64,000 bases of DNA from Octopus vulgaris (GCA_951406725.2 OX597827.1:43214001-43278000); one strand, 5' to 3'; shown: positions 29,132 through 33,116, counted from the stretch's first letter. Made by a program: numbers and translations. Notes: generated from the sequence alone by a model not told the origin.

Positions 29132-29274
29132 ATGATGTGGACATCTTAGGATATAACAGTACGCAAAGTGATGACAGCGAGGACCGAAGTAGCATCGACA
29201 GTGACGGCTTTGTGTCCGGCACGGGACAGCTGTCGCTGGACACCAACTCCAACCGCCCCATCCCATTGCTATGA
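29132..29274 (+). CDS. MXI1: Mad/Mxi1 last coding exon: acidic C-terminus to TGA
   Basis: A long T-rich tract ends in tttttcAG at 29131. The phase 1 start completes Asp, then DVDILGYNSTQSDDSEDRSSIDSDGFVSGTGQLSLDTNSNRPIPLL*, resembling the MXD tail (EEI[D/E]VDVE...SS...SDEGY). Confidence 0.88.
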
Positions 29275-30418
29275 CTCTCTGCGAGGAAGATACATCGCGT
29301 TGTCAACGGTAACCGCAGAGCCAGCTGTGGTGGCGATGACGACGATAACGACGACGACGACTACAATGACGACGACGACGGCAAAAGTGGCGACGACAGT
29401 GATGGAGATGATGTTGAAGAGGAAGAGGTGGAGGAGGAGGAGGAGCGGGTGTGGGTGTGGGTGCAAATGCAGGAAAGGAACGGGGAGCGGGGGATGGGAA
29501 AGAAAAGACTCGTGGCCAAGGCGGAAGCTCGTGGCACATTTGTCATTGTAAACGGCAACAACTTCATTGGCGGACATGCAGACAAACGCAAGTGTCACCA
29601 TCGCCTTTGTCGTTGTCCGATAGACTTTTCTTCACCGGATGACCATAACCATAACAACAAGAACAACAGCAGAAGCAGCAACAACACCAACACCAACAAT
29701 AACAACAGCAGTCGCAGCGTTAATAAATGTTGCTCTTACTACGACAGCAACACTCACCCTAGCAACAGCAACATCGACAACAATCACAACAATAACAACA
29801 TCAAATATTGCTTTTACCATAGCAACACTCACCCTAGCAACAACAGCATCAACACCAAAAACAATCACATCCATAATAACACCGATCACAACCAACGTGG
29901 CTGTAGTTCCGACTGCGACCACCACTACTGCTACACCAGCAACCACGGCAACAGCAGCACAATCACCGTCGTCATCTTCATCACCATCACCTACAGCAAT
30001 TACGACAACAACAACAACAAGAACATCAACAACAATAATAACGATGATGATGATGATGATGATGACGACGACGATGATGATGATGATAATAATAATGATA
30101 ATAATAATGAAAATGTGAGTGTTGTGTGCGAGCGCACGGCTGGAAAGAGCAAAGCTGCGGACTGCGGGACGGCGGCGGTGTCGGCGAGGGGGTTTGCGAA
30201 GGATGTGGCAGTGGAGAATGAGGAAAGGATGCTTAGCAAGAAGCAGAGCAGATGCAGTGACAATGGCAATGACATCAACTGCACCAACATCAACAACAAC
30301 AACAACAACAAGTGTGTAACAAACTTTACAAACATGCTCTATACGAACAACACGATGAAGGATATGATGATGATGATGATGAAGAAGAGGAGGAGGAGGA
30401 GAAAATGGAAGTCACTGA

Positions 30419-30479
<61 letters not shown>

Positions 30480-33116
30480 GTTGCATAATTGGAACTCTAT
30501 TTTAAAAGTGTTTTTTGCTGCCAAACATATATACAGAGTAGGTTGTTCACCTACCATGATACCACTACAACCACCACCACCACCACCACCACCACTATTA
30601 CTACTACTTTACCCTGACCTTCACCCACACCCACAGACCCTGCTACAAACACGCCTCCACACACACAAGCCCTATGCGCCACCAACTTGATTGTTCTTAC
30701 CTGCATACACACATACTTTATGAGAAAAAGAAAAATAACAAAAATATACCAAAACAACACCAAACAGTAGACAAAAATACAACCAATAAAATGTCCACCC
30801 TTCCTGAGTCACACCATCCCTGCCCTCCACGCCCCACCCCCGTCACCCTTAATCCAAGCAAAACCACTGCCCTCTACAGCACTTCCTCACCTACCATCCA
30901 ACATATCCCCTTTAACCACTTCCTGTCATATTATAACTACTAGAACTTTTGTGTGCCAAGAAGACAACCCTTAACCCCTATCCACTTTATTTTCATGGCC
31001 CCGTTTGATCCCCCTCTAAAAAACAATGGCTTAACCCCCCCCACAAATTACACTGTTCTGTCTTAAAAACAACAACTGTGCATCAATGTAGTTCTTGATT
31101 ATGTACTATAAGAAAGAAGGAAAAAAGAACACACACACAAAAAAAAGAAAAATATTTAACCGGCAGGATGGTCACAGTTAGAAAGCCTCTGGTCACTGAT
31201 CTTTTGGATCAAGGCCAATTTGGGTGGGATTAACAACCACAGTAACTTATACTTTAACTCTTCCTCCCTCCCCCCGTCCACATCCCTTTCTCTCTCTCAT
31301 TCTTCTACTACTACTACTACTACTGCTACTACTATCACACTTCTTTTCCCTGTGCCATGGAGCGCTGTGTCTTACCGCCTCCTTTCAGCCTATGGAACTT
31401 GGGTCCCAGAGGCTAGCCTTGCCCACATGTGCACCTCTAGCAAACACCGGTTGCCATTGGGTGAAGAGCCTGCCTCTACAAGGCTGTCAGGCCACAAGCC
31501 TGCTAGAAATTGCAGCCACATCTTCCACAAATCATTAATTCCACTGTCTTAAATGGAAGAAAAAGAAGAAAAAAAAATAAAGGGTACATTGCATTATTAT
31601 TATTATTATTATTATTTTTATTTTATTGTTTTTTTTTTCCTATTCTTATAATTGTTAAGGCAGCAAGCTGGCAGAATCTGTCACACACTGGACAAAACGC
31701 TTAGTGAAATTTCATCAGTCTTTATGCTTTAAGTTCAGATTCTATCAAGATTTAGTTCACCTTTCATCATTTTAGGGGTCATTAAAATAATACCCATGAA
31801 ACATAGCCCTTCCCACAAAATTCCTAGGCATTGTGCCTAAAATACAAAGGATCATCATTATTATTGTTATTGTTATTATTATTATTATCATTATTATTAT
31901 TACTACTATTGCTGTTATTATTATATAGTCCTAGATGTACATTTCATCTGAATAAAAGACAGGATGGTCACAGTTGGAAGGTGTTTGTTCATAGGTCTGA
32001 TAAATAGGGCTGACCTGGGGTTAAACAACAACAGTAGTGCCAACAGTGTGGTCTGACCAGCACTTTTCTATCTTCACCCCCTAATACCAAGTCCCCCCCC
32101 CGAGACCCCTGACTACACCCCCCCACCCACACACAAACTCCTATACACATGATCTCTACCTCCAACCACAGTTTGTGACTCCCTCCCCCTCTGCAGCTTA
32201 GCTATGCCTTCTACCCAATGCATCCTCTCTTGACAGCTTCTCTCCATATTCTTTACTACACACGCATACACACACACACATACACACATACACACGTGCG
32301 CGCACTCTCTTCCCACCCATCCCGTATCTTTCCTTCTGCCACGTCGCCACAACCGCCACAACCAATAAATAACACCCCCACCCCCTGCCTCACCTTCAAG
32401 AAAACTAAACCCCCTACCACCATCCTGCCCCTTCCCCCAAAGTTAAACCAGTAACAAATCTACTTTCTGACTAAAAACCTCTTTTCACAATTTTTATTTA
32501 AAAAAGATGAATGGAAAAAAAAATATATATATATATAAATAATTAATAAATAAATATGAAAAATATTTCAGATGACAAAAATACAAAAAAAATTATTATA
32601 AAACATACATACATACATCATATATATATATGTGTATATTTACATATATATATATATACATATATATATGTATATACATATGTATAAACATGTACATGTA
32701 TATGTGTGTATATATATATATGTGTGTACATATGTATATGTATGCATATATGTGTGTGTGTATATGAATATATATATATATGCATACACTCAAACATACA
32801 CGTGTATATATATATATATGCATGTATGTTTGTATGTATTTCTATGTATGTAAATAAATAAAGAAATGTTGAAAAAAAAGTTTAATATTGATTTTAGAGA
32901 TTTAAAAATAAAATAATATAAAAAAACTCCCCAAAAATAAGATAGAATTTTAAAAAAATGGAAAAAAAAAACAAAAACGAAGAAATAGAAACAGCAAATA
33001 AATAATTTAAAAAAACAAAAAACAACTTTTTAATCCAGGTGTAATGTACCCCCAAAATGTGTGAGTGAATATACTATATAAATATATATACATACACACA
33101 TGTTTATATATATGTA

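Follow-up and report, generated by a model that had tools for sequence, protein, structure and literature searches.

An Mxd gene of Octopus vulgaris ends in a TGA codon followed by C, and its reading frame then stays open for another 471 codons. We wanted to know whether this second frame is translated as an extension of the protein or is a repeat-rich 3' untranslated region (UTR) that is open by chance. The window that we analyzed is a stretch of 64,000 nucleotides (GCA_951406725.2 OX597827.1:43214001-43278000, one strand), in which positions are counted from the first letter. It contains the last three coding exons of the gene; earlier exons lie upstream of its start. The features of the locus are collected in Table 1.

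Table 1. Features of the Mxd locus and of the open frame that follows its stop codon.
Feature	Position	Strand	Basis
Mxd coding exon, most of the bHLH (start approximate)	4899..5015	+	tblastn of P0001; donor AAG/GT after 5015; Pfam HLH in P0001
Mxd coding exon, leucine zipper and Ser/Thr-rich stretch	27116..27290	+	100% identity to P0001 residues 98-155; splice sites
Last Mxd exon, coding part up to the annotated stop	29132..29274	+	identity to the end of P0001
TGA-C, first stop, leaky context	29272..29275	+	sequence; no other letter in contigs of X2, X9 and X17
Second open reading frame, in frame, 471 codons, ending in TGA 30688-30690	29275..30690	+	translation
Part of the extension with coding-like periodicity, ~345 codons	29275..30325	+	periodicity model
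Predicted hairpin 24 nt past the stop, candidate readthrough stimulator	29299..29343	+	minimum free energy structure; core pairs p ~1
First in-frame ATG beyond the stop, weak context	29467..29469	+	five out-of-frame ATGs upstream
Single-copy patch, gap-free alignment to an X20 contig	29474..29572	+	18 differences in 99 nt, 11 listed
Weak 3' splice-site-like sequence, TAG, 14/20 pyrimidines	29600..29624	+	would permit an in-frame junction of previous exon and extension; contigs of X2, X9 and X17 unbroken there
Tail lacking coding periodicity, with poly-Met, a basic cluster, a 21-Leu run and poly-Pro	30326..30690	+	translation; periodicity
3' UTR after the second stop	30691..31846	+	same-species contigs, depth similar to exon; separate contigs

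The gene encodes P0001, a 202-aa Octopus vulgaris protein with an HLH domain (Pfam E 6e-14) that its source names Max-dimerization protein. The TTL motif, which is specific to Mxd within the bHLH-zipper proteins (PMC3177325), is present in exon 4899-5015, and the combination of a bHLH-zipper with this motif led us to assign the gene to the Mxd/Mad family, with which it has the motif in common; P0001 and P0004 are both named Max dimerization protein or MXD by their sources. The initial annotation had used the label Mad/Mxi1, of which the Mxd/Mad half stands (HLH, TTL motif and single-copy type) and Mxi1 does not, being the name of a vertebrate paralogue. The N-terminus of P0001 presumably resembles a Sin3-interaction domain. 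A total of 466 coding nt precede the last exon, and the bHLH exon is separated from the zipper exon by a 22-kb intron (5016-27115). The homologues vary directly upstream of the last exon (P0004, P0006, P0007, P0010): cuttlefish-like proteins occur with or without a 15-residue insert, for which tblastn found no match within the window, and the Mxd protein of O. bimaculoides is without the end of the previous exon.

The homologues of Octopus bimaculoides, Argonauta hians and Acanthosepion pharaonis all end at most 12 residues from the same place, which shows that the Mxd stop is old and rules out a recent nonsense mutation as its origin. Homologue lengths range from 141 to 222 aa, and no extended form is present in the 8 clusters and 10 members of the family that were compared. 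As the initial annotation had stated, the terminal TGA (29272-29274) is followed by C, a context reported to be the leakiest of all stops (PMC13278127) and found at only 5 of 71 control gene ends. The base at +5 is U, and the context differs from the UGA-CUAG motif. That motif is a readthrough signal known from mammals.

The frame beyond this codon is indeed without a stop until TGA 30688-30690. The 62 stop triplets that the + strand of the extension contains are all in the two other frames (47 and 15), which reach at most 133 and 164 codons, while one frame of the - strand reaches 259. The predicted extension is rich in Asn (16%) and Asp (10%). A 420-aa open reading frame had been noted at an offset of 153 nt; it is in frame, and its start is a bacterial-style GTG (29428), the first in-frame ATG being at 29467. 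It had further been claimed that all (GAT)n tracts are read in phases without stops; the last of them (30364-30382) is read as Met and not as Asp, and the phase of the tracts shifts after about 30330.

Triplet repeats can keep a frame open by chance, and we therefore determined how often this happens. In the kind of shuffle that the initial annotation had called for, block-phase shuffles with blocks of 30 to 400 nt (3000 trials), the frame was fully open in only 0, 0, 0.03, 0.17, 0.43 and 2.1% of the trials. For a genomic null, 100 stretches of 10 kb at round coordinates (1 Mb) were searched, which gave 105,408 stop-to-stop intervals. Eight of these reached 471 codons, namely four dinucleotide repeats and four transposon-like frames, and none of the eight was triplet-rich. 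The numbers of triplet-rich frames in the same 1 Mb were 27, 13, 3, 2 and 0 at 200, 250, 300, 345 and 400 codons. The two longest had 355 and 387 codons, so the null still has some long frames in its tail; these closest chance analogues have no evident gene (L161 + 1263 and L182 + 2547). Extrapolation yields about 1.5e-6 such triplet-rich frames per stop; the 95% bound is 2.8e-5. Among 29 non-overlapping triplet-rich windows of 1413 nt, the longest of the six frames had 340 codons, with a median of 192.

We also examined the second open reading frames of 71 control genes. Of 85 transcription-factor loci, 51 were judged by eye to be true gene ends, and 47 remained after removal of 4 that had no stop within the locus; the other 24 controls were GPCR genes, namely those among 30 loci that had a full domain. 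The maximum in any + frame was 106 codons in these controls, which are unmatched for triplet-repeat-rich 3' UTRs. They showed no excess of second frames in frame 0 and thus no sign of widespread readthrough. Several single-exon forkhead and bHLH genes (L032, L033, L037, L076) lie within open frames of 950-1440 codons, far beyond what their domains need, and long low-complexity frames may perhaps be common in transcription factors of the octopus genome.

These results demonstrate that the 471-codon frame exceeds the local chance expectation. They bear directly on the main rival explanation, according to which the extension belongs to a long but otherwise ordinary 3' UTR, in which compound triplet microsatellites make up the first 1.4 kb, slip by three and leave the frame open by chance; readthrough would then be a basal leak, the products of which are cleared by quality control because of their hydrophobic tail. 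BAG6 is described as clearing readthrough products (PMC10364623). This explanation draws on the three triplet-rich non-coding frames of at least 300 codons per Mb, on the fact that (AAC)n, (GAC)n and (TTA)n are free of stops in every frame, and on the selection of the locus from a genome scan. It requires, however, an event with a frequency of 1e-6 to 3e-5 that starts exactly at the stop, in frame and at a TGA-C. Moreover, most long chance frames are purer repeats, with a periodic match mostly of 0.6-0.9 as opposed to 0.50 in the extension. Taking this together with the evidence given below, we consider an extension that is open by chance rather unlikely.

Next to its length, the frame has a coding-like signal. 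A periodicity model was trained on 51 genes and identified the correct frame for 76 of the 77 coding windows that had been held out (median 0.29). It preferred the readthrough frame by 0.09-0.55 per codon in six successive 300-nt windows (29275-30324). The signal is not specific, since 400 kb of sequence contained 23 places with same-frame runs of at least six windows; most of these were repeat-poor and transposon-like, and three were triplet-rich. All six triplet-rich periodic runs that we inspected have stops in every frame.

The later windows of the extension showed no frame preference (0.009 and 0.003), as would also be expected of a UTR. From about 30325 onwards the phase of the tracts changes, giving poly-Met, poly-Arg, poly-Leu and poly-Pro, and the run of 21 Leu is encoded by a perfect (TTA)n microsatellite. 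Read one base back, 30273-30488 is Gln/His-rich with poly-Asp/Glu and poly-Ile, and ends at TAA 30486. The tail is at least as protein-like in another frame as in the readthrough frame. The change of phase may reflect a past frameshift, an assembly indel near 30270-30345 or simply non-coding sequence, and selection probably does not act on the microsatellite sequence of the last 120 codons, through which a ribosome would merely run.

We then analyzed whether the region is transcribed together with the gene. Nineteen of the 24 sequencing runs listed, which come from seven studies of one organism and whose types were mostly guessed, contain at least half of the sampled words. Four of the 24 were compared in detail: X2, X9 and X17, from the same species and three studies, and X20, from a related animal. 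The contig comparison skipped the repeat tracts, so that the lengths and frame of poly-Asp/Asn and poly-Leu, as well as the splice junction, lie outside its coverage. The contigs of X2, X9 and X17 pass the Mxd stop without any other letter across 29129-29400, and in X9 and X17 the stop and the sequence up to 29957 or beyond lie on a single contig. The stretches 30124-30246 and 30643-31288 are represented on separate contigs. Upstream of the last exon the contigs carry 484-695 letters, which is consistent with a spliced mRNA having 466 coding nt there. Within the species, the variants in the extension were two missense SNPs and one in-frame length variant, and none created a stop; the length variant, in X9, shortens the sequence across the poly-Glu tract by 3 nt, and an indel of this size within a triplet repeat is expected even without selection. 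An AATAAA hexamer is present within the extension (29722-29727); the contigs continue through it, and X9 has an A>G at its first base. Contig joints with sides of 21-38 letters inside repeats were treated as artefacts.

In its major form, the Mxd mRNA therefore keeps the stop unedited and is not spliced around it, rare forms being invisible in contigs. This weighs against two other routes into the extension. One of them is minor splicing past the stop into an extension that is coding, such as a junction between the penultimate coding exon and the acceptor-like site at 29624. That site is in frame, has a TAG and 14/20 pyrimidines, and Mxd is alternatively spliced near its end in relatives (an extra 15 residues in P0004, an earlier donor in P0007). 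Against it, the contigs of all three same-species runs are unbroken at the stop and at 29624 and have no supported joint, although contigs drop rare forms. In addition, the best donor within the last exon matches the consensus at 4 of 7 positions, so that no good donor was found there, and splicing leaves unexplained both the open frame 29275-29623 and the synonymous bias at 29503-29541 described below. We regard splicing as improbable.

The second route comprises a separate protein that starts at ATG 29467, through reinitiation or on a shorter transcript, and recoding of the stop by A-to-I editing or selenocysteine; together these are very improbable. The ATG lies just upstream of the conserved patch, and it has a weak context, is preceded by five out-of-frame ATGs and leaves the frame match with Mxd unexplained. 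Cephalopods edit their mRNA heavily, and editing of UGA to UGG had been put forward as another way into the extension; no G was found at 29274 in the contigs of three of three same-species runs, contigs being blind to rare editing. With regard to selenocysteine, the 84 Rfam matches (up to E 1) obtained for 29000-36000 included no SECIS element.

To see whether the extension is under selection, we used the related animal X20. Its last Mxd exon differs at 10 of 156 nt, and the six differences listed are all synonymous. In the extension only the 99 nt of the patch could be aligned, at 80% likeness, exon and patch being on separate contigs. The patch is single copy in the genome (G000; the searches skip common words), and a repeat or transposon origin was rejected. 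In the readthrough frame, which has no stop in the patch, 5 of 9 changed codons are synonymous, as compared with 3/9 and 1/9 (with a stop) in the other + frames. Permutation of the changes gave p 0.025, and pS (6/10.2) exceeded pN (5/28.8) with a Fisher p of 0.017; this bias rests on the 11 listed of 18 changes, at positions 29503-29541. It concerns a frame that was specified beforehand, which a UTR open by chance does not account for. The divergence of the patch (11/39) equals the synonymous rate of the exon (6/20.5 sites), as would hold for DNA evolving neutrally; after calibration the likelihood ratio is for this reason only 2.6-3.4. The unique stretches 29573-29650 and 30124-30246 gave no X20 alignment, lack of cover not being proof of absence; that most of the extension is unaligned fits a UTR. 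From the patch we infer that the extension may be under weak purifying selection.

A stimulatory RNA structure is an optional feature of programmed readthrough, and the initial annotation had proposed a 7-bp stem (29277-29283 with 29314-29320) just 3' of the stop. The complementarity exists; the pairing probability, however, was at most 0.003 in five of five folding windows, and the stem does not fold because 29313-29318 pairs locally. Instead, the hairpin 29299-29343 was predicted, preceded by a small one at 29281-29298. The former had z values of -2.8 and -3.5 in two of six 60-nt windows, the -3.5 being the best of 18 windows, and of -0.4 to -2.1 in most of the longer ones.

Searches for the extension as a protein found no related protein, which also speaks for the chance explanation. 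Extension residues 58-125 had no match among proteins of 259-825 aa; a 66-aa patch had two matches among 1.84 billion representatives, both to unrelated repeat proteins at 32-33%; a 60-aa patch (30106-30285) gave no candidate in the protein search, the Atlas search with the extension no usable match, and Pfam three matches, all under the cut-off. A degenerate motif of the last exon occurred 0 times in metagenome contigs. Blank protein searches would be expected whether the region is a UTR or an extension absent from the annotation.

Readthrough is the simplest account of these features taken together: the frame is very long, it is in phase with Mxd and begins immediately at a stop that is old and has the leakiest context, a predicted hairpin lies behind this stop, and there is a hint of constraint on the protein. 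We therefore consider readthrough of the Mxd stop, giving a predicted disordered isoform of 674 aa, the best reading of the locus, with a probability of about 0.6. Of the original proposal of readthrough, the core is retained: it is the best reading, passes the nulls and receives weak support from X20. Its stem is unsupported, and the coding-like signal extends over about 345 of the 471 codons only.

According to this reading, a fraction of the ribosomes would insert an amino acid at the TGA-C that ends the 202-codon frame and then continue. UGA can be decoded by near-cognate tRNAs for Trp, Arg or Cys, and such a tRNA would act here, possibly helped by the hairpin 29299-29343. The product would have 674 residues and be threefold longer than P0001, with a tail predicted to be disordered, acidic and Asn/His-rich. 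As the long form would retain the Sin3-binding N-terminus and the bHLH-zipper, it should still pair with Max, and the tail may alter strength, partners or half-life in some tissues. By analogy with Drosophila Dfr/Vvl, we consider this the most likely function of a long form.

In a more speculative variant, octopods independently evolved insect-style readthrough, and the basic cluster and 21-Leu run anchor the 674-aa Mxd in a membrane or hand it to BAG6, so that Max is drawn away from Myc where readthrough is high. SREBP is a bHLH-zipper factor anchored in the membrane. We rate the variant as very doubtful, because the 21-Leu run is a perfect (TTA)n in the part without coding signal.

The closest known system is Drosophila Drifter/Vvl, whose readthrough isoform Dfr-L has a disordered extension of 286 aa that changes transcriptional output (PMC8417969). 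As described there, it shares with the octopus gene that it is a transcription factor with a long, low-complexity, disordered in-frame extension, a predicted hairpin 3' of the stop, and poor alignability between lineages. Dfr-L differs in that its stop is UAG, it is a dipteran POU-family protein, and it was shown by antibody, mass spectrometry and mutant, whereas the Mxd candidate involves UGA, 471 codons and a bHLH-zipper repressor of a mollusc, and is known from sequence. No fly orthologue is available for comparison, since Diptera are reported to be without Mxd (PMC3177325).

Among 52 species, abundant readthrough was reported to be confined to Pancrustacea, with readthrough regions that diverge fast and vary in length (PMC5100048). 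Like the cases described there, the octopus locus combines UGA-C, a long 3' UTR, a predicted disordered extension, a regulatory gene and what may be selection weaker than in the first frame (PMC5100048, PMC13278127). Unlike the top Drosophila cases in these accounts, it has U at +5 and not the enriched A. In the octopus, cephalopod and mollusc literature, searched by titles and abstract starts and with subscription journals outside the coverage, no nuclear readthrough gene of a cephalopod was found among the papers listed. The phrase "stop codon readthrough" is absent among the best matches for Mxd, Mxi1 and Mad1, and, judged by titles and the beginnings of abstracts, the papers listed on ribosome profiling in octopus and squid included none on cephalopod data.

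Readthrough of this kind is thus already known, mainly from insects, and what is likely new here is a candidate in a cephalopod Mxd. For regulators, readthrough extensions that are long and rich in repeats are considered a hallmark of Pancrustacea. If our reading is true, the 471-codon extension of the Myc antagonist Mxd would be a molluscan case and rank among the longer extensions, the current annotation, in which the protein stops at 202 aa, would miss the long form, and a three-frame test across cephalopod genomes would be worthwhile. It would also mean an independent origin in another invertebrate lineage with a large brain, and provide cephalopods with a recoding route that is independent of RNA editing.
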